Shown here: positions 9,782 to 41,087 of the stretch, piece by piece
Layout of the letters: each line of letters starts with the position of its first letter
Numbering within the stretch: position 1 is the first letter of the stretch
Origin: a bacterium
GTDB taxonomy: Bacteria; Actinomycetota; Acidimicrobiia; Spongiisociales; ZC4RG35
Reading direction: 5' to 3'
NCBI GenBank assembly: GCA_028823995.1
Contig: JAPPFD010000002.1
Coordinates: 53,654-117,653 of the forward strand
Length of the DNA stretch: 64,000 nt
Position numbers and translations under genes: made by a program
The notes under the pieces: model-generated
The model's database searches: none
The model's input: only the letters and a program-made list of their open reading frames with translations
Told to the model about the DNA's origin: nothing

Positions 9782-10257
9782 TGCGGGTGACGGGAACAGA
9801 GCGGAATGTGGGCCCCGACGGCCGACCCGTCTACCTGCTGGGGGTGGAGATGGCCCAGCGCTACCGCCATGCAGTGGGGTCCTCCAGCCCCTTCTACCTA
9901 GGGCTGGAACAGGGCGTCCTCCGCGCCACCCGCTGCACGGGGTGCGGAGCGTCCTGGTTCCCTCCCCGCCGGTTCTGCGAGGAAGACCTCACCGAGACCG
10001 ACTGGTACGACCTCCCCGGGACCGGGACGGTCGTCGCCGCCACCCGGGTGCACAGCCCTCCGCCGTTCGGGGGGATCGATCCGCCCTACGTCCTTGCCTC
10101 GATCCGCCTGGACGGGGTGAGAGGAGGCATCACCCACCGGGTGATCGGCGACGAGACGCCCGAGCACGGCGCGGCGGTCACCGTGGAATTCATTGACGGA
10201 GCACCCGCCCATCCCCTCCTAGCATTCGCCTTCGCAATCGAAGGAGAGGCGCCATGA
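9781..10257 (+). CDS. DUF35 / OB-fold plus zinc-ribbon thiolase-partner protein
   Basis: ATG overlaps the thiolase stop (TGATG). Zn-ribbon-like CTGCGASWFPPRRFC followed by an OB-fold-like segment. Gene order thiolase then DUF35 is the canonical pair. About 158 aa. Confidence 0.65.
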   Translation: MRVTGTERNVGPDGRPVYLLGVEMAQRYRHAVGSSSPFYLGLEQGVLRATRCTGCGASWFPPRRFCEEDLTETDWYDLPGTGTVVAATRVHSPPPFGGIDPPYVLASIRLDGVRGGITHRVIGDETPEHGAAVTVEFIDGAPAHPLLAFAFAIEGEAP

Positions 10258-13633: not shown

Positions 13634-15076
13634 GTGACGAATAAGAGGCGAGTGAAAATCGGATACGTTGGGGTGGCGTTCGGCACCTACTACGCCGACG
13701 AGCACGACCAGTACGGCCGGGCGATCAGGGGCCTCGAGGCCCTGGCGGACGAGTTCGACTTCGACCTGGTGGCGATCGACAGCGGCGTCCCCGACATGGA
13801 AACCGCCCTAGAGGTTGCGGCACGGCTCAAGTCCGAACAGATCGACTTTCTCCTTTTGCAGACCGCCGCCTGCGCCTCGGGTGAACTCCTGGAGCCCCTG
13901 GCCGAGGTGGCGCCCCGCCTGGGCATCTGGGCCACTCCCGAGCCGGTCCTGGAAGGCTCCATCCAGCTCCACTCCCTGGTGTCGGCCAGCCACTACGCCT
14001 CCATCATCCGCCGCCACCTGTCGGAGAAGAAGATCCCCTACAAGTGGTTCTTCGGCCACATCGACGAACCCGACACCGACCGGCGCCTCCGGGTGACCAT
14101 CCGCGCACTGCAGGGCATCAAGGCCATGGCGTCGGCGCGGATCGGGTGGATCGGCGGCATCTCGCCGGGCTTTTACAACATGAACTTCGACGAAGACTGT
14201 CTGAAGGACCGCTTCGGCGTCACCATAGGCACCCACTCCATCACAGAAGTTGTGGATCTTGCCCGAAGCATCGACGCCCAATCGGCCCAGTCGATGGTCC
14301 AGACGGCCACCGACCTGGCCACCGAGGTGACCGCCGGCCCGATGGGCATGGACCGCAACGCCCGGGTCTACCTGGCGTTGGGCCAACTGATCAAAGACGA
14401 AGGCTACGACGCGCTGGCCGTGCAGTGCTGGCCCACCTTCCAGGAGGAGTACCACATGGCCCCCTGCATGGCCTACAGCCTCCTCGGATCCGAGGACGGC
14501 TTCGCGGTCTCCTGCGAGGGAGACGTCCCGGGAGCCGTCACCATGCTGTTGATGAACTCGATGTCGCAGATCCACGGCTCCTCCACGCTCCTCGACCTAA
14601 CCGCCCTCGACCAGGCGTCCGACGCGGCGCTCTTCTGGCACTGCGGGGTCACCCCCCGCCACTTCGGAGGCGACAACGGGATCCGCTGGGTCGACCACGT
14701 CACCCTGGGCCGGAAGTCCGACGTCACCTACGGAGTGTCGGGCGATCTTCGCTTCGCTCCCCAGAAGACCACAATCGCCTATGCCGGTGACGACTTCACC
14801 GAGATGTTCATCGCCACCGCCGACGTGGTCGAGACCGGCAACGCCGGATTCGAGGGCACCCGCGGCTGGTTCTCGAACTTCCGCCTCTCGGGCGAACCGA
14901 TCAGCCTCGACGACCTGGTGAACACCGCGGTGGTGCAGGGACACGAGCACCACTTCGCGGTGGCCCAGGGCGACCTCTCCTCAGAGCTTGCGGAAGTGGC
15001 CGCCTGGCTCGGCATGCGCACCACCCGTCCGGTACCCCTGAAGGACTATCTGCAGATCGACGGGCTCAACGCCTGA
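13634..15076 (+). CDS. L-fucose / L-arabinose isomerase family protein
   Basis: FucI/AraA-like C-terminal domain motifs (QCWPTFQEEY, EGDVPGAVTMLLM, FWHCG). 480 aa. Confidence 0.7.
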   Translation: MTNKRRVKIGYVGVAFGTYYADEHDQYGRAIRGLEALADEFDFDLVAIDSGVPDMETALEVAARLKSEQIDFLLLQTAACASGELLEPLAEVAPRLGIWATPEPVLEGSIQLHSLVSASHYASIIRRHLSEKKIPYKWFFGHIDEPDTDRRLRVTIRALQGIKAMASARIGWIGGISPGFYNMNFDEDCLKDRFGVTIGTHSITEVVDLARSIDAQSAQSMVQTATDLATEVTAGPMGMDRNARVYLALGQLIKDEGYDALAVQCWPTFQEEYHMAPCMAYSLLGSEDGFAVSCEGDVPGAVTMLLMNSMSQIHGSSTLLDLTALDQASDAALFWHCGVTPRHFGGDNGIRWVDHVTLGRKSDVTYGVSGDLRFAPQKTTIAYAGDDFTEMFIATADVVETGNAGFEGTRGWFSNFRLSGEPISLDDLVNTAVVQGHEHHFAVAQGDLSSELAEVAAWLGMRTTRPVPLKDYLQIDGLNA

Positions 15077-21019: not shown

Positions 21020-22246
21020 TTGGCCCGCTCCGGTCCTTCCGGTGGGTCCATCTCCACGCCCGACAACGGAACCCGCTGGGGTCTGATCGTCGCCGGATGG
21101 TCGGTGTACGCCCTCTACTACATGGGGAGGGTCAACTTCTCTGTGGCAGTCCCCGGACTCGGGGAGGAACAGGGACTCGACGCCATTCGCATCGGCGCTC
21201 TGGCGGCCGGGTTCTTCTGGGTGTACTCGCTGTCGGCGCTCCCGGTCGGGATCCTGGCCGACCGGATCGGCGCACGCCTCCTGGTCGGACTGGGCCTGGT
21301 GGGAAGCGGGCTGATGAACGTCCTCTTCATCCTGACCATCCACAACTTCGCCCTATCGCTGGTCATCTGGTCGGCCAACGGGATCTTCCAGGCCATGGGA
21401 TGGACACCAATCATGGGAGCAATAGGCCGCTGGGTATCCCAGAAGGGAGCCGGACGGATCATCTCCTCCTTCGGTTCCTCCTTCGTAGCCGGGACCGCTC
21501 TCACCTTCGCCCTAGGGGGCTCCATCGTCGAACAAGGCGGGGTCGCAGCCGTGTTCATGGCCGCCGGCATCGTTCTGATTCCCGCCGGCGTCGCCTGGTG
21601 GATCGGAGTGCGCGATCCGATCCAACCGTCATCGGGTGCCAACCGCCCGCGTGCCTCGATCGCCCGAGCGCTCGGACTCCTCCCCCCGGCGGTGGCCTTG
21701 GGTGCCGCGTTCGTTGCGCTGGTGGTGTGGACGCCTGCCTACTTCGTAGAGGTGCACAACCAGGCGGTGGGCCGTTCCGGACTACTCTCCGCCGCCATGC
21801 CGGCCATAGCCATCGGCGCCATCCTCGCCATCGGGCGCTGGTTTCGACACTCCCGCGGTCCGGGCGCCGCCCAGAGGGGCGCCCTGGTGCTGGGAGCCAC
21901 CGCAGCGGCACTGGCAATGGTCAGCCAGGCGTCCGGTCTGCTGGCGGGATTCGCCACCGTCGCGGTAGCCACCGCCCTGGTCGGCGCGTCATCTTCCATC
22001 GTGCTCAGCCTGTTTCCCAGGATGACCTCTCCCACAGGCGTGGCGTTGGTCAGCGGCATCTATTCGCTGGGTTTCAACCTGGGCGGCGGCGCAGGATCAC
22101 CGATCGTGGGAAGGCTCGTCGACCAGGACGCCTGGGACGGGGTGTTCCTATTCCTGGCCGGATCCGTCCTGGCAGGTGCAATCTGGATCATCGGCTGGTA
22201 CATATGGACACGATCCCGCCTACACGAAGTGAGACTCGGCCGATGA
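21020..22246 (+). CDS. MFS transporter
   Basis: 12 predicted TM helices and MFS loop motifs (ILADRIGARLL). The start is uncertain (possibly ATG at about 21122, MGRVNF). Confidence 0.7.
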   Translation: MARSGPSGGSISTPDNGTRWGLIVAGWSVYALYYMGRVNFSVAVPGLGEEQGLDAIRIGALAAGFFWVYSLSALPVGILADRIGARLLVGLGLVGSGLMNVLFILTIHNFALSLVIWSANGIFQAMGWTPIMGAIGRWVSQKGAGRIISSFGSSFVAGTALTFALGGSIVEQGGVAAVFMAAGIVLIPAGVAWWIGVRDPIQPSSGANRPRASIARALGLLPPAVALGAAFVALVVWTPAYFVEVHNQAVGRSGLLSAAMPAIAIGAILAIGRWFRHSRGPGAAQRGALVLGATAAALAMVSQASGLLAGFATVAVATALVGASSSIVLSLFPRMTSPTGVALVSGIYSLGFNLGGGAGSPIVGRLVDQDAWDGVFLFLAGSVLAGAIWIIGWYIWTRSRLHEVRLGR

Positions 22247-23031
22247 ACGATCGCCAACCCAAACACAGAGCCGTGATGGACCTCGGCCGAGAAGAATGGC
22301 TGGAGGCGCTCGGAATGGACGCCGCAGACATCCCGAAAGCAGTGATCATGGAGGGCTCCTGGTGGCGAGCCCAACGCACCGAGTGGCGCCTGAGCTACCT
22401 GGACGACGTGCGTGAACTCGCCTTCCCAGACATGTTCTACGGCTTCTGGCAAGGATCACCCGTCGTCTACTCCTGCGTCTACGGAGCACCAAGGGCCGTC
22501 GAGTTGGCACACCTGTTCGGAGTACTGGGCACCTCCCGGATGGTGATAATCGGCACCTGCGGCGCTCTAGATCCCGGGTTGGCTACCGGGGACGTGGTCG
22601 TCCCTTCGCGAGCCGTGGCTCGGGAGGGCGTAGCGCACCTCTACAAGACAGTGACCTCAGACCCCGGCATCGTCCGCTCCGACCGGCACCTGACCGCGCA
22701 AGGTAGGACTGCCCTGGAGAACAGGGGTATCAGAACCGCGGACTCCCTACATCTGACCTGGAGTTCCATCTTCGCCCAGAGCGGAGCCATGGTCGAGGAA
22801 TGGCGGGAGACAGCCTACGGATCAGTCGACATGGAAGCCGCCACACTCTTCGCCGTAGCAAAACACTTCGGCTTCGCCGCCACAGCGCTGCTGGTGGTCT
22901 GGGATCAACTCACCGCCGATCGAAGCTTCCTCGACCCCCTAACGCCTGAGGAGCAAAGCAGTCTTGAGGTTGCCAACATGACCGTATTCGAGGCAACTCT
23001 GGACATAGTGTTGAGTCCAGACCACCTTTGA
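22243..23031 (+). CDS. Nucleoside phosphorylase (PNP/UDP family 1)
   Basis: ATG in ORF 21097..23031 overlapping the upstream stop (ATGA). PNP_UDP_1-like motifs (IIGTCGALDP, MEAATLFAVA). 262 aa. Confidence 0.7.
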   Translation: MNDRQPKHRAVMDLGREEWLEALGMDAADIPKAVIMEGSWWRAQRTEWRLSYLDDVRELAFPDMFYGFWQGSPVVYSCVYGAPRAVELAHLFGVLGTSRMVIIGTCGALDPGLATGDVVVPSRAVAREGVAHLYKTVTSDPGIVRSDRHLTAQGRTALENRGIRTADSLHLTWSSIFAQSGAMVEEWRETAYGSVDMEAATLFAVAKHFGFAATALLVVWDQLTADRSFLDPLTPEEQSSLEVANMTVFEATLDIVLSPDHL

Positions 23032-23143: not shown

Positions 23144-26100
23144 CTATCCATCGGATCCTAGCAACTCGATCATCCCTTCAGGTAAACCAAAGCGTTCCGA
23201 TACCCTGACTTCCCTAAAACGGCTTGTCCTTCTTCCCAGGGATTCCTCAAGTAAGCTGACGTAGCGCCTTTGTGCACGATAGTCTCTTGCCGGCATCAAT
23301 GCCTTCAATGCTATCACAAACCCCGTTGCTTCATCACCCAGTAATCGATTGTTTTCCAATGTGTTAACTATTCTATTGAAGGCATCGCCGCGTGAACACC
23401 CGATATCTTGGGCAATGGATATCAGATCTTCCTTGCCGCCACCTAGCCAGACATTCTGTTGGCAGAGCTTGATCAACAGACCTGCTAGCTTTTCGTTCGG
23501 CTTGTCAAGCGCTTCGACTTTCTTGATCTCCAGTCCCAGATCGCCTAACTGCCCTCGTTCTGCTACTGCCCCCAGAACCGGCAACATCGCCGTGTCCCTA
23601 TTCAGAACATCGTAAGCTCTCCGCAAGACTTCAACACCATCGTCGACCAGTGACGAGTTACCAACGTGGCAGTCAAAGGAGGAGTGTCTTCTTCCCACGG
23701 TAAGAAATAGCTTTGCCCCAGCAGTTGGTGATTCACTGACCAAGTTAGCCAACACATGAAGGGGAACAGGCTGTCCCGCAGGAAGCACTCGATAAATCTC
23801 TTCTAATGTATCCACATCCGTCTGCCGTAAGGTAGGAAAGTCCTCTAAGCGTGCGGGGAAGGAGTAAAGGAACATTAACCAGTTGATAACTTCAGCAACG
23901 AACTGACGGGACCTACCGGAAGGCAAATTACTAAACAGTGGTATCACATCTTCTAAGGTTCTTCTATCCGCATCCATAATAAACATCGGATTAAAAACCT
24001 TCAACGGCGATAACGTTACTGGAAATCCAGTAGTCCCAATTCTCGCGTCGAACGGCAAACGCTGATCCGCCATTGAAAGCACATCTTCCCACACGATACC
24101 CTCATCGAACCAGCGAGTCTCGGCTGTGATCCAATCGTCTTGGTCGCCCAATCTCCCTTCTTTGGCTCCGTCTGCCAGCTCCAATAGCTTTTTCGCATCG
24201 GTACATGACTCCAGACACGCTACAATAGGCCACGGTAATGTTCGCCACACAGTCCTATTCGCTGCATGGTCCTCGTCAAAGGAGACCTTTGCAAAGGCCT
24301 TAAGTGTACTCGCTAACATATCTTTGGAAGGTGCCTCTAAGAATCTGCCAGCCCACTTATACGGTAGCCAACTGGGATGCCAGTCAGAAATCGCATTAAG
24401 CGTTTGCAAAACCGTCGCGCTACCAGGAGTCAACCGGTTAATTGGCCCGTAGGACAACATCGTATCTAAAACCGTGACTCTAGGGCCGCCGTGATGTCTA
24501 GGAGACTCCAGTATTGAAATCGCGGCTTTTAGGGTCGGGTCCACGTCCTGTCGCTCCAATAATGCCCTTCGTTTTTCTGACTGGAACACACCTACAAACG
24601 TACCAATGGGTGTCCTCGGAATTAGGCGCAGCACCTGCTCAGTTGCCCAACCGTTCTTAGTGTGGTCAGTGTCGGCTAACAGAATATCAACCTGGTCTTG
24701 GACGCCATTAGGCCAATAACTGTTTGCCATGTCGGTAGCCCAGTCGACGTCATTAGCGACAAGCGCAAGTAAACAATTCCAAGCTCCTAAGAACTTAACA
24801 TGGTCGCTACCTGTAAGTCGCAGCCCTAATTCGTCTCGGTAAATGGTCTCCATTTGAGAATCATACACATTAGCTAACTGTGCATGCAGACGGGGGTTGG
24901 CCTTATCCAGCGCTCTAATCGCCAGTCTCCCTAGCAGCGTTTTGTATTTCGGCTGCCGCCGTGCCGAACCCTCCTCTAGCAAGGCGATGGCCAGGTCCGC
25001 ACCCACTAAGTGCAAACCTTCCCCCTCGTTACCGTCTTCTTCATTCAAAGCGGCACAAGTTGAATGCACCAACTCGCGAAGCTCCTGCCGCTGAGCAAAA
25101 CATTTGCCCGCAGCAAACAAGAAAACGTTCCTCCAGAATGGGATGGGAGCTATTTCCTCTAATCGCGCCTGGATGTCGGGATAGGTGTCCTCCACTAAGC
25201 TCTCTGCCGCCATAAACTCTTGCAACGAGCGGATTTCAAATCCTATTCTCTCCGCTTCCATTTCGACCAAAAACACCAAACGCTCCGAGGCCGCTGCCAC
25301 GATCTGTTCGGCGATAGTGCGTCGATCCTCCTCCGGATGTTCCTCCGCCCTTAGCCGCGCTTCTACAAGAGACACAAATCGATGGCGATCCAACAAAGCG
25401 TCTGTTCTGCCTGTCCTTTCAGAGTCCACTTGAAGGATGAGGCCCACTTGGTTGTGGATAGTCCTAATGTCGGGTTCGTATTCACTCAATATCCTTGACG
25501 CAGAGATGTCCCTTTCCATTTCTCTGTCGTATATGACGTCGTAATATGAATTAAACAGATTCCAACGCGCTTGTGGAGGCTGCCCTAAACGATCTACCAA
25601 CGCAGTCATAATCGTTACCTGCAACGGTGTCCTCATCAAACGACTGGTTGATGGATCTCCAAAAGCCCGCCTTAACCGGCCTAACACCTTTTCTTTCCGA
25701 TCTTCGTCAGCACCATACCGGACTGCAGCGAGCCGCTGCGCATAATGCCAACCAAGTTGTTCCGACAACTCGGCCAGATGTTGGTGTTGGTAATACAGCG
25801 GTGAAAAGTCCTCATTGTAGCCTTGGGGGCGACTAGTCGCTATTGAGAGAATGTCCGCGTTAGCACTGCTGGCATCCACCCAGAACTCTCTAATGGCACG
25901 CAGAACTTCATCTCTGTTGCTTGAAGGTGGTACCTCATCTAATCCGTCAAAAATGAAGACACTTGGATAGACCGCGAGGAACTGACGTAGATCCGCCGGT
26001 GATACCTCGGCATCAGTGCGTCTCTTTATTTGTGATGACAAATAGCCAAGCACGGAGTATATTGGCGACTCCGAACTGGGAGCCAAAGCCTTGGCAAAAT

Positions 26101-27205
26101 CGTTTAATGTCAATTTAAAAGGAAAGCGAGGCACGACTTTATGCGAGATGTTTTCGCTTTCGCAATGGTGCTGAATCGTTCCTAAGGCACCCTTTGTGGG
26201 CGGAGACCATGTATGCTCAGGTTTTCTCGCGATGACCGCAGCACGGAAGATTTGGCAAATGAACTGCGTCAACGTAGTCTTTCCCTGACCTGGACCTCCG
26301 ATCAATACAAACCGCCCGCGGGATGCTCCAGCTAAACCTGCCTCAATGCGGTCTGGCACTGGAGAGGCACCCACAGAAGCAGGATCAAGACGTTCGGAAG
26401 ATGCGGCCAATACGTTTCTGATGAATCCTTCCTTAAGCTGAGGCCGGCCGACATCATTAAGATCCTCAAGGGCCTCGCCCAGCATATGTGACCTAATCAT
26501 ATTGGGCTCATGTTGAATAGGCAGGTCAACAAACACCGTGGCTAGAGGTATAGGTTCGTTTACAGTGTGACCAGCTTGCTCCAGATTGACGTACTCATCG
26601 CTTAGCAATTCCTTTTCCAAAAACCGCGTCATGGTAGTATGCATGTCAACCGATGCCGGTTTTAGTGTCGCAAAGGCGGCCGCGAGCACATCGCCTGGCG
26701 TTATGAAAGTGGAATAGGTGGTCCTAACTTCAGGATAAATGTCAAGGAATATGCGAATCTGGTCATAGTCCCATATGGCGTAGTCCTTGAGATGTGATTG
26801 CGATTTGAATTCCTTTAGAACGGCAAATGCCTTGTCTTTGGAACCTTTATCCTTTACTGGTGTTAGAACCACATTCGTAGCGTAAATGAAGAAATCAGGT
26901 GACCGTATGTTGGTGTCTGGGTCGGTATACTTTTGTAACTCGTCCCTTAGTTGCTCTACTGCCCATAGCCCGTCTTCATAGACATTGCCGGAACGCTGCC
27001 GGAATTTTGCCTGTACAACGCCATAACCATCCCAGCCATCTAAATGCGTGGGGTAAGGTACCTTCCGTTCGAAAGTCGCCTCTCGCCCACCGTCGGGGCC
27101 ATCCCCAAACACCACAATCCCAGGGCCCAAAACCTTAGCTGCTAACGCTTGAATCAACTGCTCAAACGAGCGGGGAGATAAAGTTGAAAGGTTGTAGTCA
27201 GCCAT
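23144..27205 (-). CDS. Bacterial NLR-like (bNACHT / Avs-like) STAND NTPase with an N-terminal Mrr-type restriction-endonuclease domain and a long C-terminal helical sensor-like region (1353 aa). Putative antiviral defence protein.
   Basis: Residues 1-70 match the Mrr_cat pattern (SFEQLIQAL...GDGPDGGRE...GVVQAKF). NACHT-type NTPase: Walker A at about aa 300-312 (FVLIGGPGQGKTT), Walker B (VFIFDGLDE) and the NACHT-specific TSR motif (ILSIATSRPQGY). About 750 C-terminal residues are helical-repeat-like. The gene is about 50% GC against a host background near 68%. Confidence 0.75.
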   Translation of the reverse strand: MADYNLSTLSPRSFEQLIQALAAKVLGPGIVVFGDGPDGGREATFERKVPYPTHLDGWDGYGVVQAKFRQRSGNVYEDGLWAVEQLRDELQKYTDPDTNIRSPDFFIYATNVVLTPVKDKGSKDKAFAVLKEFKSQSHLKDYAIWDYDQIRIFLDIYPEVRTTYSTFITPGDVLAAAFATLKPASVDMHTTMTRFLEKELLSDEYVNLEQAGHTVNEPIPLATVFVDLPIQHEPNMIRSHMLGEALEDLNDVGRPQLKEGFIRNVLAASSERLDPASVGASPVPDRIEAGLAGASRGRFVLIGGPGQGKTTLTQFICQIFRAAVIARKPEHTWSPPTKGALGTIQHHCESENISHKVVPRFPFKLTLNDFAKALAPSSESPIYSVLGYLSSQIKRRTDAEVSPADLRQFLAVYPSVFIFDGLDEVPPSSNRDEVLRAIREFWVDASSANADILSIATSRPQGYNEDFSPLYYQHQHLAELSEQLGWHYAQRLAAVRYGADEDRKEKVLGRLRRAFGDPSTSRLMRTPLQVTIMTALVDRLGQPPQARWNLFNSYYDVIYDREMERDISASRILSEYEPDIRTIHNQVGLILQVDSERTGRTDALLDRHRFVSLVEARLRAEEHPEEDRRTIAEQIVAAASERLVFLVEMEAERIGFEIRSLQEFMAAESLVEDTYPDIQARLEEIAPIPFWRNVFLFAAGKCFAQRQELRELVHSTCAALNEEDGNEGEGLHLVGADLAIALLEEGSARRQPKYKTLLGRLAIRALDKANPRLHAQLANVYDSQMETIYRDELGLRLTGSDHVKFLGAWNCLLALVANDVDWATDMANSYWPNGVQDQVDILLADTDHTKNGWATEQVLRLIPRTPIGTFVGVFQSEKRRALLERQDVDPTLKAAISILESPRHHGGPRVTVLDTMLSYGPINRLTPGSATVLQTLNAISDWHPSWLPYKWAGRFLEAPSKDMLASTLKAFAKVSFDEDHAANRTVWRTLPWPIVACLESCTDAKKLLELADGAKEGRLGDQDDWITAETRWFDEGIVWEDVLSMADQRLPFDARIGTTGFPVTLSPLKVFNPMFIMDADRRTLEDVIPLFSNLPSGRSRQFVAEVINWLMFLYSFPARLEDFPTLRQTDVDTLEEIYRVLPAGQPVPLHVLANLVSESPTAGAKLFLTVGRRHSSFDCHVGNSSLVDDGVEVLRRAYDVLNRDTAMLPVLGAVAERGQLGDLGLEIKKVEALDKPNEKLAGLLIKLCQQNVWLGGGKEDLISIAQDIGCSRGDAFNRIVNTLENNRLLGDEATGFVIALKALMPARDYRAQRRYVSLLEESLGRRTSRFREVRVSERFGLPEGMIELLGSDG

Positions 27206-27576
27206 GTTTATGCATCGGCTGCTGTTGTGTGATAGGCGTATCCGGGCGAACCTTTACACGGTCCGGGGCATGCCAGGAAAAGAATTTGAGCATGATGAGA
27301 GAATACTAGCCGTCGACACATCGACTCTGCCGCAAGCCTAGGTGCATGAGGTTGTTCAATGTTGGGTAGTTTCCATACATGCTGCCCCCGAAGCCGCACC
27401 CCCTTTTGCCCCAGAATCCGCGCCCCACACTTCGCCGTAGCTAAACAGTCGGGATGACTGCGACCGCCCTACTGGCACTTCGGCATCAGGGTACAGAGCT
27501 TTCAGGGCCGCTCCATGCGTGTCACACCCGGATAGGTATCCTGGCGGGGGAGCCCATCCCAGGAGGATGATTGAGA

Positions 27577-27924
27577 ATGCGGTTGGAAGACCTGAACCCC
27601 GAAACGGTGGTCGATGGTCTCGTGGCGGGGGAACGGGCCACCGTGGTGGCCGTCTATTGGCATGGTGCGGGGACTGTCCAAGTGGTGTATCGCACATCCC
27701 AAGGTGTGTCTGAGAGGCTTCTGTCCCGCGACGACGAGGCCCGCCTGTTGGTTGCCACCGCAGAGCGTCCCTGGACGCTCGATGCGCCTGGTCACGCTTT
27801 CAAACTCGCATCAGAAGCGCTCCGCATCCACTTGGCGCATCTGTTCGATCCCTACCTAGCCGTCCAAGGGTCGAACATTAGCTGCATGTTGTGGAGGGAA
27901 TCGGCACTGCAGGCCAGAGGTTAG
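27577..27924 (+). CDS. Hypothetical protein (115 aa), divergent from the NLR-like gene
   Basis: Strong RBS aggagga 9 nt upstream of ATG 27577; a TTG at 27571 is also possible. No recognisable domain. Low-GC context. Confidence 0.4.
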   Translation: MRLEDLNPETVVDGLVAGERATVVAVYWHGAGTVQVVYRTSQGVSERLLSRDDEARLLVATAERPWTLDAPGHAFKLASEALRIHLAHLFDPYLAVQGSNISCMLWRESALQARG

Positions 27925-28074
27925 TCCCCTAAACAAAACTCCGTCTTACGGATCAGGGTTGCTAGCTCAACTGGTGTGGAAAGGAGATCTTCCTTTTCTC
28001 TTGCTACGATGGCACTTCGTCCTTGGTGACAGGATCCGTCGTGGTGGGTTGCCGAGAAAAGAGATCTCTGGGGA

Positions 28075-29187
28075 GTGCTGTTTTATAGTATGTTGTCTGA
28101 CTGGGTGGCTTCGATGGAGATGCTTGTGGTGTTCCAGAGAGAGTGTCAGCGAATCTTTGCAGAGTTATCGGAGTGGAATGACGGCCATCCAGAGTGGCAG
28201 AAGATGTTTGGTGGATGGTTGGGGTTGATGTTTACAGCGGTGGTTTTGGCTGGGTCGGGATGGGCAGATCCGGTCCGGCTAGAGGAATTCCTGCGCCTTA
28301 TTGTGACTCCGCTAGCCGTTTTCTGGGGCTTTGGGGAGTATGGCAGAAGATGGCAGTCTGACGACCATCCCGGCGAGGTGGGGCCTTCTTCCGCTGAGGG
28401 TCGAGAAATCGATTGGCGGCGGACATTAGTAGGAGTGACCCACTTGGCAGGAATAGTTGCCGTCCTCGCCATCCTGATTCTTGTGGTTTTCGTTGATGGG
28501 CCTTCGGAACTGTGGACTGCGTTTGCCCCTGGAGTTCTCATTTTTGTGTGTCTAGCGATTACCAACGCTGTCGCTCGTGCAGTGGGCAGCAGGCCGGCCC
28601 GTTTCTCTGTTGCGCACACCGTGCCTGACGTCGGGAGGGGCCGAGTGCTGGCAGCCACGTTGATAGACAGTGTTATGGCGTGCGTATTTTCGCTTTTCCT
28701 GCTGATGATGCTCCTGGCGGCTTTGGCAGTAGAGGACCAGGTGGGTTCCGACATGCTGCCCTTTACAAACAAGGACTTGGGAAATTCCTTCGATGGCATC
28801 TGGATACCGTTGATGGTGTTCTTGGCAGTCTTCTTGGTGTACCGGTGGGTCGCCCTTCGGAGATGGGGATGTGGACTGGGTGGGCTTTCGATGCGATTGC
28901 AACTCCGTGACCACGGGGGCGAGAGGCCAGGACGGTTCAGGCTTCTCCTAAGGTGCGCATTCGATACTGTATGTATGGGTATGGCTGTGGCCGCGGTTGC
29001 GTTCCTCCCGGCCGATCGGGGGGTCCCGGCGATGGGCGCGGTTGTAGTGATCGCTGTTTGCGTTGGTACCAATGAAGGCAGAAGCCTGACCCATGTACTG
29101 TCGGGCACACAGTACGAACTGCGACAACGCGGTGGACCCAGCCAAAGATCGAACCCAAATGGCGGGATAGACCCACTTGAAACCTAG
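28075..29187 (+). CDS. Hypothetical polytopic membrane protein with an RDD-family-like C-terminal region
   Basis: At least 6 hydrophobic helices. The C-terminal segment resembles RDD-domain proteins (RWGCGLGGLSMRLQLRDHGG..RLLLRCAFD). Start uncertain. GC about 54%. Confidence 0.45.
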   Translation: MLFYSMLSDWVASMEMLVVFQRECQRIFAELSEWNDGHPEWQKMFGGWLGLMFTAVVLAGSGWADPVRLEEFLRLIVTPLAVFWGFGEYGRRWQSDDHPGEVGPSSAEGREIDWRRTLVGVTHLAGIVAVLAILILVVFVDGPSELWTAFAPGVLIFVCLAITNAVARAVGSRPARFSVAHTVPDVGRGRVLAATLIDSVMACVFSLFLLMMLLAALAVEDQVGSDMLPFTNKDLGNSFDGIWIPLMVFLAVFLVYRWVALRRWGCGLGGLSMRLQLRDHGGERPGRFRLLLRCAFDTVCMGMAVAAVAFLPADRGVPAMGAVVVIAVCVGTNEGRSLTHVLSGTQYELRQRGGPSQRSNPNGGIDPLET

Positions 29188-29541
29188 TAGCAGGGTGGTT
29201 CAAACCAACACCTGTTCCCCTATGCCAAAGCAGGTCCCCTGTCGGATCCTGTCCAGCAGGGGTGCCACAGGACAAACGGGGAGCCCTCAGCAGTTGGACG
29301 CCGATAATCATGGTCCTAGCGGCAATAACAGCGGGCGTGCTCATCGGCGGGTACCCAGGAGCCGGGCCCGGGTATAGGCGTATCCGCCATAGCACTGCAC
29401 ACCTGGCGAGCAGGATCCAAACGGAACTAATCCACTGTGTCGGGTGCAAGTTATCCCAAAAAGAGCTGACGCCTCTTGGCCACCGGACCTGGGAAGTGCC
29501 AGATAGGGGCCCTCGGGGATGCGGAACCGAAGTCGGATCGG

Positions 29542-30759
29542 CTAGGCGGCGGGGTCGACCAGGCGTCCTATGAATAAGAAGGCGCCGGTTTCGGGGTGAA
29601 CGATGGCCCAGAGGAAGGGGCGGTCGGCGACCACCGTGAGGTCCGGTGGTGGTGGTGCTGACTCCTTGAAGGCCATGGCGGTGGCTGCAGCGGCTTCGGT
29701 GCCTTTCTCGTCGACGATCACCTTGGCGCCGTGGAGGGCGGCGGTGATGAAGATGCCCGGGGCGATGTCATCGAAAGGCGCTCCGGCGCAGAACCCCCGG
29801 GGGCAGAGCCACTCGAACAGGTCGGTGGGCGGCAGGGTTTGTTCCCACTTGGGCATGGTTAGATCGACAAAGCCCTGTTGGGCAATGTCCTCAAGGCCGG
29901 TCAGGTCCTGTGAGTCGAGCAATTCCTCGACCGCTGGAAGTCCTCCTGGGTCGTGGGGCACGATCAGCCACATGGCCAACCGGCCCCCCTGGTATGGGAG
30001 TTGTACCGCGTCGGCGCCGTCGAGTCGGACGAAGCGACGAGCGACCGGCTCCCGGTCGCGCATGAACGGTACCGTCACCGCGAGGCCGTCTCCGGTGGTG
30101 AACGGGCCATCTTCGGTCCACTCGGGGAGGAACGGCTCTGCCCAGTCGGCCTTCAGGTACACCGTGTTCACCAGGACCAGTTCCTGGCTTTGGACGGTCT
30201 GTTCGGTGACGATGGTGGGAACCAGACCGCGGGTGGTGTCCGATACCCATCCGTTGATGGTCTCGGCCGCCGACGCGCCGTCGTCGAGGTCGATCGGGTG
30301 GACCGCCGCTCCGTAGTGGGCGCCGGCAATCTCCAAGAAACCGGGCAGTGGAGAGAACTCGTCGTCGGGGAAGAGACGGTTGGCCACCTCCAGGGTGGTC
30401 GGTTCCACCGAGGCGGTGGCCAGCATCAGATCGACCGCATTGGCCGCAGGGTGAAGATCAAGCTCGGGGAACCCGAAGATCTCATCGAGCACCGCCCCGG
30501 TGTCTCCGGATGCGCCGGCCCGGCTGAGGCTGAAAGCCAAACCGAGGCTGACCGGACTGGAGACCGCGTTGCCCACCAGGTGGCGATGAAAGTCCCAGCC
30601 GGCCGCGTTGGCTCCGGCCACCCAATCCGCCGTCGGCGCCAGGGGATCGGCTGGCAGCCGGTCGGCCACCGGCTCCAACAACGTCGTGGTGGTGACCGAG
30701 GGACCGCATGCCGCGGTCAAGAAACACAGGAGAACGAGAAACCTGAGCAATTTTGTCAT
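29542..30759 (-). CDS. Serpin-family protease inhibitor, lipoprotein (bacterial serpin)
   Basis: ATG at 30759 (MTKLLRFLVLLCFLTAACG is a signal peptide plus lipobox). Serpin hinge GTEAAAAT, then the reactive-centre loop. C-terminal serpin signature (VADRPFLWAIVHPETGAFLFIGRLVDP). About 405 aa. Confidence 0.8.
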   Translation of the reverse strand: MTKLLRFLVLLCFLTAACGPSVTTTTLLEPVADRLPADPLAPTADWVAGANAAGWDFHRHLVGNAVSSPVSLGLAFSLSRAGASGDTGAVLDEIFGFPELDLHPAANAVDLMLATASVEPTTLEVANRLFPDDEFSPLPGFLEIAGAHYGAAVHPIDLDDGASAAETINGWVSDTTRGLVPTIVTEQTVQSQELVLVNTVYLKADWAEPFLPEWTEDGPFTTGDGLAVTVPFMRDREPVARRFVRLDGADAVQLPYQGGRLAMWLIVPHDPGGLPAVEELLDSQDLTGLEDIAQQGFVDLTMPKWEQTLPPTDLFEWLCPRGFCAGAPFDDIAPGIFITAALHGAKVIVDEKGTEAAAATAMAFKESAPPPPDLTVVADRPFLWAIVHPETGAFLFIGRLVDPAA

Positions 30760-31034
30760 AGCTTGTTCGATCGTAAGAAGAGCCTCAGAGAACCTCGTTG
30801 TCAACTCTAGAACGCGGCCTAGCAGATGTGCGGAGACCACATGGTCGGCTATTCGAAGGGACGCCGGGGCCAATCGAGGAGGACGGCCCACTTATCATCC
30901 TCGACCAATGGCCTCTTTGATTGACCACTTCTCTCCTCCAAAGCGCCCCTCAACGCGACTCGGGGAGGCGAAGTGTCACACCCCCTTCCCATGCTTGCTG
31001 CAAGCAGCATTCCAGCAGGGAGGAGGCCTACATC

Positions 31035-31784
31035 TTGAGTAACCGATCTGGGATCGAGTGGACTGAGACGACGTGGAACCCGACGACTGGTTGCGACCAG
31101 GTGTCCATGGGGTGTGACAACTGCTACGCGCTGACTTTCGCGAAGCGTCTCAAGGCCATGGGCCAACCCAAGTATCAGAACGACGGTGATCCTCGCACCA
31201 GCGGTCCCGGATTTGGACTCACCCTACACCCGGATGTCTTGGCCGAGCCAAGGCGATGGAGGGCGCCTAGGTTGGTGTTTGTGAACTCAATGAGCGACTT
31301 GTTTCATCCCGAAGTCCCTCTCGAGTTCATCCAAGAGGTGTTTAGTGTGATGGCCGAAACGCCACAGCACACCTACCAGATCCTTACCAAGCGTTCCAAG
31401 CGACTTGCATCTCTCGGGCCCCAGCTGGACTGGTCCCGAAATGTTTGGATAGGTGTCAGCGTTGAAACCAGTCGCTATGTCTTCCGCATCGACCACCTCA
31501 GAACCGTTCCTGCCGAAGTCCGCTTCATCAGTGCGGAACCTCTACTGGGTCCTCTTCCCAATCTGGATCTCTCGGGCATCCACTGGCTGATCGCAGGGGG
31601 AGAGAGCGGCCCCGGGGCAAGACCCATCGAAGAAGCATGGGTCCTCGACTTGCGGGATCAGTGTGCAGCCGCCGACGTAGCCTTCTTCTTCAAGCAGTGG
31701 GGAGGCCTCCACTCAAAATCCGGTGGCCGGGAACTTGATGGTGCTCTATATGACAATTTGCCATCACTCAGCAAGGCAAGCTAG
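31035..31784 (+). CDS. Phage Gp37/Gp68-family protein (DUF5131) with an N-terminal three-Cys motif
   Basis: TTG start at 31035 preceded by ggaggagg. N-terminal IEWTETTWNPTTGCDQVSMGCDNCYA matches the family hallmark (C-x6-C-x2-C). About 250 aa. Confidence 0.7.
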   Translation: MSNRSGIEWTETTWNPTTGCDQVSMGCDNCYALTFAKRLKAMGQPKYQNDGDPRTSGPGFGLTLHPDVLAEPRRWRAPRLVFVNSMSDLFHPEVPLEFIQEVFSVMAETPQHTYQILTKRSKRLASLGPQLDWSRNVWIGVSVETSRYVFRIDHLRTVPAEVRFISAEPLLGPLPNLDLSGIHWLIAGGESGPGARPIEEAWVLDLRDQCAAADVAFFFKQWGGLHSKSGGRELDGALYDNLPSLSKAS

Positions 31785-31798
31785 GCCGGGCCAACATT

Positions 31799-32785
31799 GT
31801 GCGGGTATGGGGATGCTGGACCAAAGGCAAGTTGGACATTCTGCGGCGGTATCTGGATGCCTTCACCACAACGACCAAGCACAAGTCAGATGAAAGGATT
31901 TATATTGATGCTTTCGCTGGTGAGCAGGAAAACCGACTTCGTCTGACAGATGAGCCTCTGGAAGGTTCGGCAAGAATTGCGTTATCAATTGAAGATCCAC
32001 CCTTCACCCGATTGCGTTTCTTTGAAACCGAAGCCAACGCATCCGCGCTTGAGTCATCGTTGAGGCGCGACTACCCAAACCGTGATCTGGAAGTGTTAGG
32101 TGGGGATTGTAATGAACTCATCCCCAGGGAACTTGCTCGGTTGCGGCGGCTCAATCGAGTTCCGACGTTCGCCTTTATTGACCCTAACGGTATGGAGGCG
32201 GAGTGGCGAACGTTAAAGGCATTGGCGCATTTCAAAGAGGGACACCGGTGGAAAGCCGAGATTCTCTACTACTTTGCACCGCCGATGTTTACGCGAGTAT
32301 TGCCGGTTGATGGCCAACCGGTCAGCAAGAAAAACGCTGCGAGAATTGATCGTCTCTACGGTACGAAGGACTGGCGTTTCATTTACGAGGCCCGCCTACG
32401 TTGTGCCTTAGAGCCTTGGCAAGCCCGACAAGAGTACCTCAATCTGATGAGATGGCGCATGGAAGAATCCTTAGGATATGAATGGACACTCCCGATTGAA
32501 GTTCGAAATGAGCGGGGCGTCGTCATCTATTACATGATCTTTGCCACTGATCACGAAGCGGGTGAACGCATAATGGGGAGCGTTTACGCTAAAGCTGCCG
32601 AAGAGTTTCCGATAATGCGCGAGAAGGCGCGAAGGATTCGCAAACAGGAAGAAAACAAAGAACGCGGCGTAACAAGCCTTTTCGGTGAGGACGATGGAGA
32701 ACTCTGGGGCCCAATTCTGCCAGGAGAACGGTTTTACGAACACGAGCCACCTACCAGGCCATGGTTCCTGCGCGAGTGCCCTTGA
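31799..32785 (+). CDS. Three-Cys-motif partner protein TcmP-like, with Rossmann/methyltransferase-like motifs
   Basis: Immediately downstream of the DUF5131 gene. N-terminal WTKGKLDILRRYLDAFTTT resembles the TcmP family start. IYIDAFAGEQ and FAFIDPNG resemble MTase motifs I and IV (weak). GTG start. About 48-50% GC. Confidence 0.55.
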   Translation: MRVWGCWTKGKLDILRRYLDAFTTTTKHKSDERIYIDAFAGEQENRLRLTDEPLEGSARIALSIEDPPFTRLRFFETEANASALESSLRRDYPNRDLEVLGGDCNELIPRELARLRRLNRVPTFAFIDPNGMEAEWRTLKALAHFKEGHRWKAEILYYFAPPMFTRVLPVDGQPVSKKNAARIDRLYGTKDWRFIYEARLRCALEPWQARQEYLNLMRWRMEESLGYEWTLPIEVRNERGVVIYYMIFATDHEAGERIMGSVYAKAAEEFPIMREKARRIRKQEENKERGVTSLFGEDDGELWGPILPGERFYEHEPPTRPWFLRECP

Positions 32786-32972: not shown

Positions 32973-33827
32973 TCAGTTCTGGTCCCCACCCACAAAGGAA
33001 GAAAGCACCTCCGGTATCGCCTCCCATGCAACCGAGCGGGTGAGACGATTCAGTGTTCCCACCCCCACACTCTTCTGTCCACCAAGTTCCTCATCGAGCA
33101 CTGAGGTTGGGACCACCCAAAATACCCAGCACAGTGGATCCTGAACATCCTTATTGGTTGCGGGTACGGTGTCATGAAGGCAGAACACATAAATGTCAGC
33201 CAGACGCCGGGGCGGATCGAAGGTTTGCCACTGGTCTGTGTCGGGATCCCATGCCATCTTCCTAGGCCTAATGTCGAATCTCGGTGTCGACATCTGTTCG
33301 AGGTTCCACGTCTGGCTGATTCCCGAGGCCTTGACTTCGATGGTGAGGTTGCGGTAGCGGAGATCATACGAGTTCCACTCGGTTCGATGGTCGGCGTCAT
33401 CAATGATGCCGAGTGCTTGACCGACCAGCCACTCGGCATATAAGCCTCTGTTGACGTTGTCAACAAGATTCCCGACGGCCCAACGGTTGAAGCTCCCGGG
33501 TGGAGGGCTGGGGGGAGGCTTAAGCCAAACAATGGGAATGTCAGGAGCAGCAGGCGACAACAAATCCATCGCGTGGTACATCTCATCCTGGTAGTAGAGC
33601 CACCAGCGCCCCATGGGCCCTCCTGCCCAGCTGTCAAACCCCAGTTCTATCCCGTTGCCAAGCTTGATAAGCGCTATGGCTTCGAATTCCCACCATTCGT
33701 TGTACCGGGGGCCGGCAAACAGTTGGGGGCCAAAGGCCAGGTAGGAATGCTCTCGCTCGATCAGCCGATATACAGCTACCGATCCTTTGGTGATCCTGTC
33801 GGGTTCTCCGTTGCGTTCTCTGTTCAT
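32973..33827 (-). CDS. Hypothetical protein with a C-terminal PD-(D/E)xK-nuclease-like signature
   Basis: The E...D...E-x-K arrangement (YAEWLVGQALG ... YDLRYRNLTIEVKASG ... DIYVFCLH) is typical of the restriction-endonuclease fold. Second gene of an operon with the HNH-DUF433 gene (ATGA overlap). Confidence 0.45.
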   Translation of the reverse strand: MNRERNGEPDRITKGSVAVYRLIEREHSYLAFGPQLFAGPRYNEWWEFEAIALIKLGNGIELGFDSWAGGPMGRWWLYYQDEMYHAMDLLSPAAPDIPIVWLKPPPSPPPGSFNRWAVGNLVDNVNRGLYAEWLVGQALGIIDDADHRTEWNSYDLRYRNLTIEVKASGISQTWNLEQMSTPRFDIRPRKMAWDPDTDQWQTFDPPRRLADIYVFCLHDTVPATNKDVQDPLCWVFWVVPTSVLDEELGGQKSVGVGTLNRLTRSVAWEAIPEVLSSFVGGDQN

Positions 33828-34384
33828 AGAGTCTTGGCCCTAACGGTTCGCAGAAGCTCGATCTGACGGTCGATGATCCGCTCGGCATCCGACATCTCGA
33901 TGCCCTCGTAGCAATCCAGGAACTGGTCGAGGGTTATGCCTTCGTTGAGCTCCTCGAATAGCTCGGCAATAGGCAACCAAGTACCGGCAAATACCCACTC
34001 ACCGCTAAGACGGTCCGTACGTCTCTCAACAGCTCCGCATGTTTCCCAGATCGACTGGCGTTGTTCTGAGGACTTGCCGAATTGCCTCACTACAAGGGGT
34101 GGCTGCCACCCGCAACCGCAATTCCGCTCGGCCGCGAGGCGACGCTCTGGTGATCGGTAGTCAATGGGTTGATCGGTTTTCCGTCGATTGCAAGTTTGGC
34201 AGAGGGTTTGGAGGTTGTTCCAACAGTCTGGCCCGTCAGCGGCTTGCGGGACTATGTGGTCGATCTCAAGATCCTGGGAGCTTCCGCAAGAAAGGCATTG
34301 ATCCCCATCGAGACTGAACACCCGTTCGCGACGTCCCTTCTTTTTACTCATACGTGGGAATCTTAACGAGCGGGTGTGACGCAT
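33824..34384 (-). CDS. HNH endonuclease fused to a C-terminal DUF433 domain
   Basis: HNH motif CLSCGSSQDLEIDHIVPQAADGPDCWNNLQTLCQTCNRRK. C-terminal GTWLPIAELFEELNEGITLDQFLDCYEGIEMSDAERIID matches DUF433. The likelier start is ATG at 34351 (MSKKKGRR). Confidence 0.7.
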   Translation of the reverse strand: MRHTRSLRFPRMSKKKGRRERVFSLDGDQCLSCGSSQDLEIDHIVPQAADGPDCWNNLQTLCQTCNRRKTDQPIDYRSPERRLAAERNCGCGWQPPLVVRQFGKSSEQRQSIWETCGAVERRTDRLSGEWVFAGTWLPIAELFEELNEGITLDQFLDCYEGIEMSDAERIIDRQIELLRTVRAKTL

Positions 34385-34574
34385 TCCCCTCGGGTTCGTG
34401 CCGAAGCAGGGGAAAGCGGCAACACCCGCGCCGGTTACCGCCTCGAAACTGCTAACAGCAACACCAGAACGGCCGCGCCATGACCCACCATGCCGGCTTC
34501 ATCCGCCGGAGATACTGACCGGGTAGGCAACCGAGGCCCGTGCAACGCCGATTTCTCTCTCCTCCTAGGGTCTC

Positions 34575-34600
34575 GGGATTTGTCATAATATAATGATCTT
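34575..34600. promoter_or_regulatory. AT-rich near-palindrome (tgtcataatataatgatc) just upstream of the GntR gene; candidate operator or -10 region
   Basis: Seen in sequence about 5-25 nt upstream of the gntR-family start. 12 of 14 positions of tcataatataatga are dyad-symmetric. Coordinates are approximate, because text and ORF track disagreed by 1 nt here. Confidence 0.3.
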
Positions 34601-34602
34601 CC

Positions 34603-35352
34603 ATGAGCGGCGGCTTGGACAGACACCTTCAACGTGGCCCTCTCCCACTGTGGTTCCAGATCAAGGAACAACTCAGACGGGCCATCGATATGGGCGAGTG
34701 GGCGCCGGGCGAACAGTTGCCAACCGAGAGCGAACTCACCGAGTTCTTCGGTGTCAGCCGGATCACGGTCCGTACTGCTTTCGAGCGGCTGGGCGACCAG
34801 GGTCTGGTTGAACGGACTCCCGGGCGGGGCACCTTCGTGGCCCAACGCAGTTTCGAACAGCCGGTCACTCGTCTGGCCGGATTCCACGAGGACATGGCTA
34901 GCCGTGGCTTCGTCCCCTCCGCTCACACCCTCTCAGTCGGAGTCGTTCCCGGACCCTCCGATGCGGCGTCGGCACTGGGTGCCGAGGGCGAGGACCTGGT
35001 GGAGGTCCGGCGTCTCCTCTCAGCCGACAACACGCCCATGGCTTTCCAACACGGCTATCTGCCTACCTGGGTGTTGGGAAACGGCGAGTTCACCACCGCC
35101 GACCTTCACAACAAGTCGCTTTATCGGATCATGGAGGAACGGACCGCGTCGCATCCGGCGACCGCCGAAGGGACCATCGAAGCGGTCCGGGCTGACCGCA
35201 CCCGAGCCGACCTGCTGGACGTGCCGGAGGGATCGCCCCTCCTCCTCGCCACCCGCTTGTCTCTCGATAGGTCCCGACGCCCGGTCGAGTGGGTGCGGCT
35301 TTGGTACCGGGCGGACCGCTACCGCTTCCGGGTGGAGTTGCAACTCCCATGA
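34603..35352 (+). CDS. GntR-family transcriptional regulator (HutC subfamily, UTRA effector domain)
   Basis: N-terminal winged HTH (LPTESELTEFFGVSRITVRTAFERLGDQGLVERTPGRGTFV) and a C-terminal UTRA-like domain. 249 aa. Confidence 0.8.
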   Translation: MSGGLDRHLQRGPLPLWFQIKEQLRRAIDMGEWAPGEQLPTESELTEFFGVSRITVRTAFERLGDQGLVERTPGRGTFVAQRSFEQPVTRLAGFHEDMASRGFVPSAHTLSVGVVPGPSDAASALGAEGEDLVEVRRLLSADNTPMAFQHGYLPTWVLGNGEFTTADLHNKSLYRIMEERTASHPATAEGTIEAVRADRTRADLLDVPEGSPLLLATRLSLDRSRRPVEWVRLWYRADRYRFRVELQLP

Positions 35353-40434: not shown

Positions 40435-41087
40435 CCACAGGCGTCACCTTCATCACCGAAGCACTACGGCTTCCGGGCGCGATTGCCGAGTTGTCGCGGA
40501 CACTGCGGAGTCTCGGCGACGCCGGCTGGCTGCTGGATCCCCAGCACATCGCCGGCCGGCGGGAGACCGGCGCGCCCACCGTCTACTGGTCCGAGCCCTT
40601 CGGAGACACCGCCGCGTTCGGCCTGTTCGAAGCGCCGGGTCTCGAGGAGGCGCACCGGGGAATCAGCGAGTTGGTGAAAGCTGGCTGGGGGTGGATGTTC
40701 GGACGGACCCAGTGGATCGTGGGGCCCCGCGACCTTCCCCCGTCGCTGGGTGAAGGACCGTTCGAGCAGGGTCTGGGGTTCCTGGCGCTGTGGGATTGGA
40801 ACGACGCCTGGCACAGCGCAACGCCCGAGGAGCGGGCCGTTTACGACCGCGACTGCGATGTGGCGTTCGCATACGACGTGGAGTTGGGGATCGACATTTT
40901 CGGCCGCTTCGACACCGCCGGGACCTCGGACTGGGACCATGCGGCGTTGTGGGAGGTGCCGGACCTTCCGACCCTCACCGAAGCCATGCACGGACACGAG
41001 ATCCAGGACGACTTCATGTTCACCACGTCTTACCATCTCATCGGGCGCCCTATCGCCTTCGACCGATTGGAGGAACAGCTCCAGTGA
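40431..41087 (+). CDS. Hypothetical protein (218 aa), translationally coupled to the sugar ABC permease genes
   Basis: ATG overlapping the permease stop (ATGA). No confident family; it may consist of two small alpha+beta domains. Confidence 0.4.
   Translation: MTTGVTFITEALRLPGAIAELSRTLRSLGDAGWLLDPQHIAGRRETGAPTVYWSEPFGDTAAFGLFEAPGLEEAHRGISELVKAGWGWMFGRTQWIVGPRDLPPSLGEGPFEQGLGFLALWDWNDAWHSATPEERAVYDRDCDVAFAYDVELGIDIFGRFDTAGTSDWDHAALWEVPDLPTLTEAMHGHEIQDDFMFTTSYHLIGRPIAFDRLEEQLQ

Follow-up and report, generated by a model that had tools for sequence, protein, structure and literature searches.

What is a gene of about 50% GC, coding for a single very long protein, doing among the metabolic operons of a GC-rich actinomycetotal genome? 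The gene lies at 23144..27205 on the minus strand of a 64,000-nucleotide stretch of contig JAPPFD010000002.1 (hereafter the window), and a first-pass annotation had proposed that it encodes a defence protein of the STAND class (signal transduction ATPases with numerous domains), similar to the nucleotide-binding leucine-rich-repeat receptors (NLRs), in which a nuclease, a NACHT NTPase and a helical sensor are joined. Our analysis supports this interpretation as essentially right, with a protein that is itself uncharacterised and belongs to a class already known in bacteria. With a probability of roughly 0.7, we read it as a single-gene immune receptor of the STAND/NLR type, acquired horizontally and directed against phages, which is armed with a nuclease and would trigger DNA degradation upon oligomerisation.

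The reading frame is uninterrupted, begins with ATG and runs for 1353 amino acids plus the stop, and its product is a 100% match of the hypothetical protein MCZ0938344.1 from a Caldilineaceae (Chloroflexota) metagenome-assembled genome (MAG). Our reading is carried by the three-module anatomy of this protein, its NACHT fold, the intact invariant motifs of its NTPase and nuclease-like parts, the swapping of effector and sensor modules among its relatives, and its accessory, defence-related context. The modules and motifs are the following:

23144..27205, minus strand: complete open reading frame, a restriction endonuclease-NACHT-solenoid STAND in one protein of 1353 amino acids (open-reading-frame list; identical to MCZ0938344.1)
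26795..27205, minus strand: probable N-terminal restriction-endonuclease-like (PD-(D/E)xK, Mrr-like) effector domain, residues 1-137 (PADLOC REase-TIR matches, secondary structure of the AlphaFold2 model)
27005..27109, minus strand: putative catalytic core FGDGPDGGRE ... W.GYGVVQAK with D38, E42, Q65 and K67, residues 33-67 (from conservation; the catalytic role is a prediction)
26336..26794, minus strand: helical linker, residues 138-290, in which the motif NLEQAGH / IPLAxVFVDLP is conserved and two variable loops are of low confidence (alignment, AlphaFold2)
25046..26335, minus strand: NACHT module (nucleotide-binding domain, helical domain, winged helix), residues 291-720 (fold searches of the AlphaFold model)
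26273..26299, minus strand: Walker A GGPGQGKTT, residues 303-311, with K309 (invariant in homologues)
25934..25960, minus strand: Walker B VFIFDGLDE, residues 416-424, of the NACHT type D-G-x-D-E (D420, G421, L422, D423 and E424 invariant)
25817..25837, minus strand: TSRPQGY, residues 457-463, with the sensor-1 arginine R459 (R459, P460, Q461, G462 and Y463 invariant)
23996..25045, minus strand: C1, conserved proximal part of the alpha-solenoid, residues 721-1070 (AlphaFold2 predicted template-modelling score 0.83; in 64 of 81 genome loci)
23147..23995, minus strand: C2, hypervariable or swapped distal part of the solenoid, residues 1071-1353, candidate specificity determinant (identity 0.31; in 10 of 81 loci)

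The three parts that the first-pass annotation had recognised in one protein of 1353 residues are thus all present: a nuclease-like N-terminus, a NACHT module and a helical C-terminus. The motifs that it quoted are all there as well (GDGPDGGRE at 34-42, VVQAKF at 63-68, GGPGQGKTT at 303-311, FIFDGLDE at 417-424 and TSR at 457-459), with K309 as the Walker A lysine, and they vary little or not at all in an alignment of 102 full-length homologues. The most conserved N-terminal positions of this alignment are F14, E15, G34-G36, D38, R41, (E42), W58, G60, Q65, K67, T110 and N111, and those of the NTPase are G303-G308, K309 and T311, D420-V425, R459-Y463 and P527-Q529. One detail has to be corrected: the catalytic aspartate had been placed at residue 37, which is not an aspartate, the acidic residues being D35, D38 (invariant) and E42. 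The mean pairwise identity is 0.64 in the nuclease, 0.50 in the linker and 0.65-0.70 in the NACHT module, and falls to 0.42 in residues 721-1070 and 0.31 in residues 1071-1353.

The identification of the central module as a NACHT NTPase, already proposed from its motifs, was borne out by these invariant positions and by fold searches with a confident AlphaFold model, in which residues ~291-720 were nearest to the NACHT modules of animal NLRs (NOD2, NLRP3, NLRC4), then to Avs3, Avs4 and Avs5 and to plant NB-ARC. The STAND signature comprises a Walker A motif GxxxxGK[ST], a Walker B motif in which hhhhD is followed by a small residue and by a second acidic residue two positions on (D-G-x-D-E; Koonin & Aravind 2000), and a sensor-1 arginine. 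In the window protein we find Walker A, Walker B and the sensor-1 arginine on a fold of nucleotide-binding, helical and winged-helix domains that is closest to NACHT proteins.

Residues 1-137 are most probably a restriction-endonuclease-type domain, Mrr-like in character. We base this assignment on significant similarity to one restriction-endonuclease domain of defence effectors and on the logic of the motifs, not on a passed Mrr_cat test. With the whole window protein as query, residues 3-137 match the PADLOC model Aga_REase-TIR-PNTD1-PNTD2 (E 2.4e-6); this model is matched by 24 of 24 family members (best 4e-11), and the defence candidate PDC-S73 by 23 of the 24 (best 1e-11). Judging from its name, the former model would stand for the Mrr-TIR-APAZ proteins, which Koopal et al. 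describe as a SPARTA subclade and whose N-terminal domain is the InterPro Mrr domain. Mrr_cat (PF04471) is in turn the top and the sole recurring Pfam family, found in 7 of 24 close and 8 of 43 divergent members (best E 9.4e-4), and its match spans profile positions 2-59, that is, the catalytic core. The residues of the putative core are invariant or nearly so in the 102 full-length homologues and in the 43 divergent ones. In the AlphaFold2 model the domain has the topology alpha-beta-beta-beta-alpha-beta-alpha-beta (helix 11-26, strands 43-49 and 58-67, helix 75-94, strand 105-110, helix 122-136, strand 141-145), an order compatible with a PD-(D/E)xK core, with the conserved residues at the expected places; the predicted catalytic loop 35-39 is of low confidence (predicted local distance difference test <50).

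The helical C-terminal region that had been predicted is modelled by AlphaFold2 at high confidence as an all-alpha solenoid (residues ~721-1353), to which we assign a putative sensor role. Across 81 genome loci with relatives, the N-terminal half is present in all, residues 721-1070 in 64 and residues 1071-1353 in 10, of which nine belong to Chloroflexota relatives and the tenth is a partial match in an Acidobacteriota MAG. When residues 721-1353 were run exhaustively as a query over 1.84 billion representative proteins, 705 relatives were found (420 at 1e-10). Because nearly all of these are ~1300-1370 amino acids long with a match beginning near residue 720, and because most of them match just the first ~345 solenoid residues, the solenoid is specific to this architecture, with a tip that is fast-evolving or exchanged.

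A constant NTPase with exchangeable N-terminal and C-terminal modules is a hallmark of immune STAND proteins, and the relatives of the window protein display exchange at both ends. Four of them (P0297, P0301, P0314 and P0348; 1456-1512 amino acids) are 35-37% identical to it from residue ~156-186 to the C-terminus and retain the linker, the NACHT module and the full sensor, while the nuclease is replaced by a domain of ~300 amino acids. This domain begins with a hydrophobic, glycine-rich stretch, for example GGMTLVGLATGSSPFFSLLLN, and may be a membrane-acting effector. A further relative, P0347 (1674 amino acids), is without an N-terminal effector and carries ~700 additional C-terminal residues. 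At the other end, the Escherichia coli protein WP_098027498.1 (1330 amino acids) has in common with the window protein the nuclease and linker (residues 1-230, 31% identity, E 4e-29) and the NACHT module (residues 296-746, 32%, E 2e-45), with no similarity beyond residue 746, so that its C-terminal ~600 residues differ. Its gene (NZ_LR782232.1, positions 6069-10061 of the locus extracted) belongs to a P2-like prophage, where the portal gene and the replication-endonuclease gene flank it, and is present in 3 of 5426 complete E. coli genomes. This position is the classic hotspot at which such prophages carry anti-phage genes as cargo. The protein, named 'NACHT domain-containing protein' by PGAP, was missed by PADLOC 2.0 and by Pfam NACHT; the intact gene was recovered through DNA, a protein homologue search with the E. 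coli seed having given fragments only.

Homologues occur in at least 511 species-representative genomes, spread over Chloroflexota, Actinomycetota, Gamma-, Alpha- and Betaproteobacteria, Acidobacteriota, Verrucomicrobiota, Planctomycetota, Nitrospirota and Riflebacteria. The gene is solitary in all nine loci examined, with no conserved partner, and its neighbours are defence or mobile genes in six of these nine, in addition to the E. coli prophage hotspot and the window. They include a type III restriction-modification (R-M) system with PIN, Schlafen and UvrD genes, R-M genes with transposase genes, a methyltransferase-HNH gene, transposase, integrase and GmrSD genes and, in two loci (L005 and L090), a Hma-type SNF2 helicase with a DUF1156 methylase. 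The contexts are thus variable and rich in defence and mobile genes, and the taxonomic spread is patchy, in agreement with the accessory rather than uniformly core-genome setting expected by the first-pass annotation. In two metagenomic genomes, homologues 55% identical to the window protein occupy the same site between DUF72 and short-chain dehydrogenase genes, and one of the two has a DDE_3 transposase added alongside.

By analogy with Avs3, Avs4 and bNACHT25, we infer that the protein serves in defence, that a ligand makes it oligomerise, that it cleaves DNA and that the outcome is abortive. At rest, its NACHT module would be nucleotide-locked and the protein monomeric and inactive. The C-terminal solenoid, whose distal ~280 residues differ between lineages, would act as the sensor and engage an infection-specific ligand, be it a protein of the phage or a host factor that infection has perturbed. 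Once the ligand is engaged, the NACHT module would exchange or bind ATP and the protein would oligomerise, bringing the Mrr-like PD-(D/E)xK domains together into an active nuclease multimer. This multimer would cut DNA indiscriminately, and the phage genome would be destroyed, the cell killed, or both, as in abortive infection.

Several results weigh against this reading. The Pfam check that had been proposed failed for both domains, PF05729 staying below its gathering score (19.2 bits against 26.7, in the P-loop region only) and Mrr_cat never reaching its own (12.6 bits against a cutoff of 21 for the window protein); precomputed PF05729 is on none of the family members. Since these tests fail where the fold comparison succeeds, it is structure that carries the NACHT call. 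When the family N-terminal alignment was compared by hhalign with a 43-member alignment of genuine PF04471 proteins, the probability was 0.45% and the score 18, which column-shuffled controls (13.7±2.8, maximum 22) and, likewise, reversed templates did not separate from chance; a comparison of the N-terminal profile with one single Mrr protein gave no match. The hhalign realignment, its score within the control range, superposes F14-E15, GPG, D38-G-G, E42, Q65-x-K67 and T110 on invariant Mrr residues. Therefore we do not claim Mrr homology as demonstrated, and of the 'clear Mrr_cat core' seen earlier the motifs and the similarity to a PADLOC restriction-endonuclease model stand, while the Pfam threshold and the profile-profile test do not support it. 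In addition, both fold-search lists for the whole model were filled by NTPase matches, leaving the nuclease fold unmatched on its own, and a fold search of the PDB with the solenoid gave no match at E<=1e-3 and hence no hint of a bound ligand; the best matches were karyopherins, condensin HEAT subunits and ARM proteins (E~5e-3, TM-score ~0.2). The comparison with Avs sensor domains suggested by the first-pass annotation also came out negative, Avs TPR sensors not being among these structural matches. Finally, the window protein matches no Avs model at E<=1 and no bNACHT model in the 2023 PADLOC set, and at three of the nine homologue loci the gene is simply inserted among metabolic or housekeeping genes.

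Which other functions could such a protein have? Within the same class, its solenoid might act as a guard that does not itself bind a phage protein and instead monitors a host factor, or checks whether a defence system next to it, such as Hma, is intact. The requirement of bNACHT25 and bNACHT32, which are also nuclease-NACHT-helical proteins, for host DnaJ speaks for such a guard, as does the recurrence of the gene beside Hma-type helicase/DUF1156 systems (L005, L090 and a remnant in the window). However, Hma adjacency is found in 3 of 10 loci only, the STAND gene persists in the window after the decay of Hma, there is no detectable similarity to bNACHT25, and a hypervariable tip is easier to reconcile with a rapidly evolving ligand from phages than with a conserved factor of the host; we thus regard a guard as rather unlikely. 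It is tempting to speculate, still with the odds against it, that we are dealing with an unnamed pattern-recognition receptor, whose 630-residue solenoid is unlike the solved sensors and whose distal ~280 residues could set the specificity for a trigger outside the known Avs and bNACHT ligands. Such a trigger may come from phages that infect Chloroflexota, Actinomycetota and other hosts that are little studied, and the recurrent pairing with Hma could reflect the sensing of an anti-Hma counter-defence.

Far less probable is an NTP-dependent type IV restriction enzyme, in which the nuclease itself would recognise and cut modified foreign DNA, while the NTPase and solenoid would regulate it or clamp the DNA instead of sensing infection. 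Type IV enzymes typically carry Mrr_cat-type domains and R-M genes are often adjacent, but the NTPase is a STAND/NACHT switch and not a translocase or a McrB-type GTPase, no DNA-binding or modification-reading domain was detected, and the nuclease is exchanged in relatives for a hydrophobic, non-nuclease domain, which would make no sense for a restriction enzyme. We give the least credit of all to a non-immune STAND, a signalling scaffold or regulator lying on the island by chance. It is true that many STAND clades are not defence-related and that the three plain insertions lack defence neighbours; yet no helix-turn-helix or other regulator-type output domain was found, the N-terminal domain is held in common with defence effectors, one relative occupies the P2-prophage hotspot, and both the patchy distribution and the foreign composition speak against it. 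The nuclease-armed anti-phage receptor is therefore the reading that we retain.

How did the gene reach this site? Its GC content is 0.49-0.52 along its length, against 0.62-0.70 in the left flank and most of the window, in agreement with the compositional contrast reported in the first-pass annotation. That annotation had the gene splitting two catabolic operons; two operons do flank it, an MFS/phosphorylase/ABC operon on the left and a GntR/PfkB operon that resumes at high GC on the right, but the gene is the left edge of a lower-GC accessory stretch of ~11 kb (23.1-34.4 kb), and not a simple split. A 644-amino-acid reading frame at 21097-23031 (plus strand) is over-extended in GC-rich DNA; the real left genes, as in the related locus L005, are an MFS transporter (21020-22246, plus strand) and a 263-amino-acid PNP_UDP_1 phosphorylase (~22240-23031, plus strand). 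A ~100-nucleotide fragment of the 3' part of the latter is repeated across the STAND gene, identical at 24 of 27 positions in its core:

22834..22930, plus strand: left copy of the bracketing direct repeat, in the 3' part of the PNP_UDP_1 gene (repeat search)
27403..27488, plus strand: right copy of this phosphorylase-gene fragment, decayed, on the upstream side of the STAND gene (repeat search; same place in L005)

In L005, whose genome is ~85% identical to that of the window, the repeat copies lie at 14187-14283 and 9348-9453, the STAND homologue is 86% identical and the MFS/phosphorylase flank is in common. To judge from these DNA alignments, the duplicated fragment is probably an insertion scar older than the split of the two lineages. 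The duplication is visible in DNA only, tblastn of the phosphorylase protein against the right flank giving no signal; integrase genes are absent from both bracketed loci, and no tRNA that could be an integration target is in the window. The foreign composition, the patchy distribution and the probable bracketing scar support horizontal acquisition, as had been proposed. The 'own start and terminator context' is not shown: consensus scans for promoters and terminators gave no sensibly placed site, and shuffled sequences yielded more sites than the real one.

To the right of the gene, the frame at 27571-27924 (plus strand) is a 117-codon N-terminal remnant of a HmaA SNF2-type helicase (PADLOC PDLC00659, E 1.3e-30, profile positions 2-106 of 1176). 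An intact helicase/DUF1156 system stands beside the STAND homologue in L005, beyond the right repeat, and in L090, so that a Hma defence system has been truncated in the window. We discarded the 113-amino-acid frame at 27356-27697 (minus strand) as a possible partner gene, since it gave no family match, shows no conservation across the other loci, and runs into both the repeat scar and the HmaA remnant. Then follow an RDD-family membrane protein gene (28075-29187) and a bacterial serpin gene (29542-30891; Pfam Serpin 1.6e-66). A DUF5131 protein (30921-31784, plus strand) and a 328-amino-acid protein (31799-32785, plus strand) match PDC-M41, a defence candidate of two genes in PADLOC (B 1e-108, A 1e-28; also PDC-M30), within a second lower-GC patch (31-34.5 kb, GC ~0.55). 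A small HNH endonuclease fused to DUF433 (33824-34384, minus strand) has weak PtuB/DpdF-type HNH hits in PADLOC (7e-6), and the frames at 32973-33827 and 34435-34926 (both minus strand) have no family hit. Because the HmaA remnant, the PDC-M41 pair and the HNH-DUF433 gene lie to the right of the STAND gene before the high-GC operon resumes, we place it at the margin of a defence island that is small and in part decayed. Two side observations concern composition: positions 28000-29200, over the RDD gene, show strong strand asymmetry (GC skew +0.30, AT skew -0.24 to -0.30), and positions ~41000-57000, with GC ~0.59-0.62 against 0.65-0.70 elsewhere, may be another accessory region.

That bacteria use nuclease-armed STAND/NLR-like proteins as innate immune receptors is well established, and the architecture itself is no surprise. 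What our work adds is a large, well-delimited family, found in no fewer than 511 species genomes and, for the sensor, in 705 representative clusters, that was missed by the 2023 PADLOC defence models and goes uncalled at Pfam thresholds. The family thus illustrates how NACHT proteins are under-called by hidden Markov model thresholds where structure comparison recognises them easily. With clear module boundaries, natural relatives in which effector or sensor is swapped, a hypervariable tip, and tractable relatives in Pseudomonas folii, P. palleroniana and E. coli, it is a candidate for trigger-discovery screens. The accessible parts of the published sources yielded no established name or experiment for the family.

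Among known systems, Avs4 (PDB 8DGF) also joins an Mrr-like nuclease, a STAND ATPase and a TPR sensor. However, the window NTPase is closer to animal NACHT modules than to Avs4, and Avs4 was found neither with its PADLOC model nor by PDB sequence match, nor was its TPR among the solenoid matches. PDB sequence searches with the protein and with the family profiles A1, A3 and A5 gave nothing relevant and no Avs3 or Avs4 match. Membership in Avs1-5 was rejected in view of the lack of a family-model, PDB-sequence or TPR-sensor match. The Mrr-TIR-APAZ partners of short Argonautes share the N-terminal nuclease domain (residues 3-137) and this one domain only, the remainder being TIR and APAZ that work with Argonaute. 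The first-pass annotation had preferred NACHT over an Avs-type ATPase and pointed to the bNACHT clade; the fold, closer to NACHT than to Avs3, Avs4 or Avs5, agrees with the former. As to the latter, the layout fits untested clade-2 proteins of the bNACHT list, and no PADLOC bNACHT model is matched. The E. coli proteins bNACHT25 and bNACHT32, of NACHT clade 6, are the functional analogues that have been characterised. They are likewise single-gene defences, in which a PD-(D/E)xK DNase at the N-terminus precedes a NACHT module and a helical domain at the C-terminus; their nuclease-dead D48A mutant loses defence, and their activation needs host DnaJ. They differ in length (752 against 1353 amino acids), in their C-terminus (a ~170-amino-acid NCH1 against a 630-residue solenoid) and in NACHT clade, and neither has detectable sequence similarity to the window protein, the nuclease domain included. 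bNACHT25 was accordingly rejected as the family, and so was bNACHT27, which has a different nuclease and P-loop.

The closest published company is found elsewhere. In Table S1 of Kibby et al. (10.1101/2022.07.19.500537), NACHT clade 2 lists untested 'REase+NACHT' or 'Mrr_cat+NACHT' proteins, for example WP_044834066.1 and WP_125728006.1, which are alike in layout (REase ~17-132, NACHT ~233/289-703/737), long, without an annotated C-terminal domain and from diverse phyla; they were compared by layout alone, from which we infer co-membership. The tested proteins of this clade (bNACHT20, 27, 30 and 37) bear other effectors, that of bNACHT27 being a Cap4-type nuclease with a different P-loop. Lee et al. 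2026 (10.64898/2026.01.04.697583) surveyed 589 STAND clades and named Avs7-24, and among the seeds in the accessible part of that survey the NTPase of Nocardia jejuensis WP_084478584.1 is 37% identical to ours (2e-45) and that of E. coli WP_096949132.1 31%. The prophage protein WP_098027498.1 carries the same NTPase as the latter seed and a sensor unlike that of the window protein. Because the clade-2 layout matches and, as far as the accessible part of the survey goes, two of its seed NTPases are related, the family lies inside the known universe of defence-associated NACHT STANDs.

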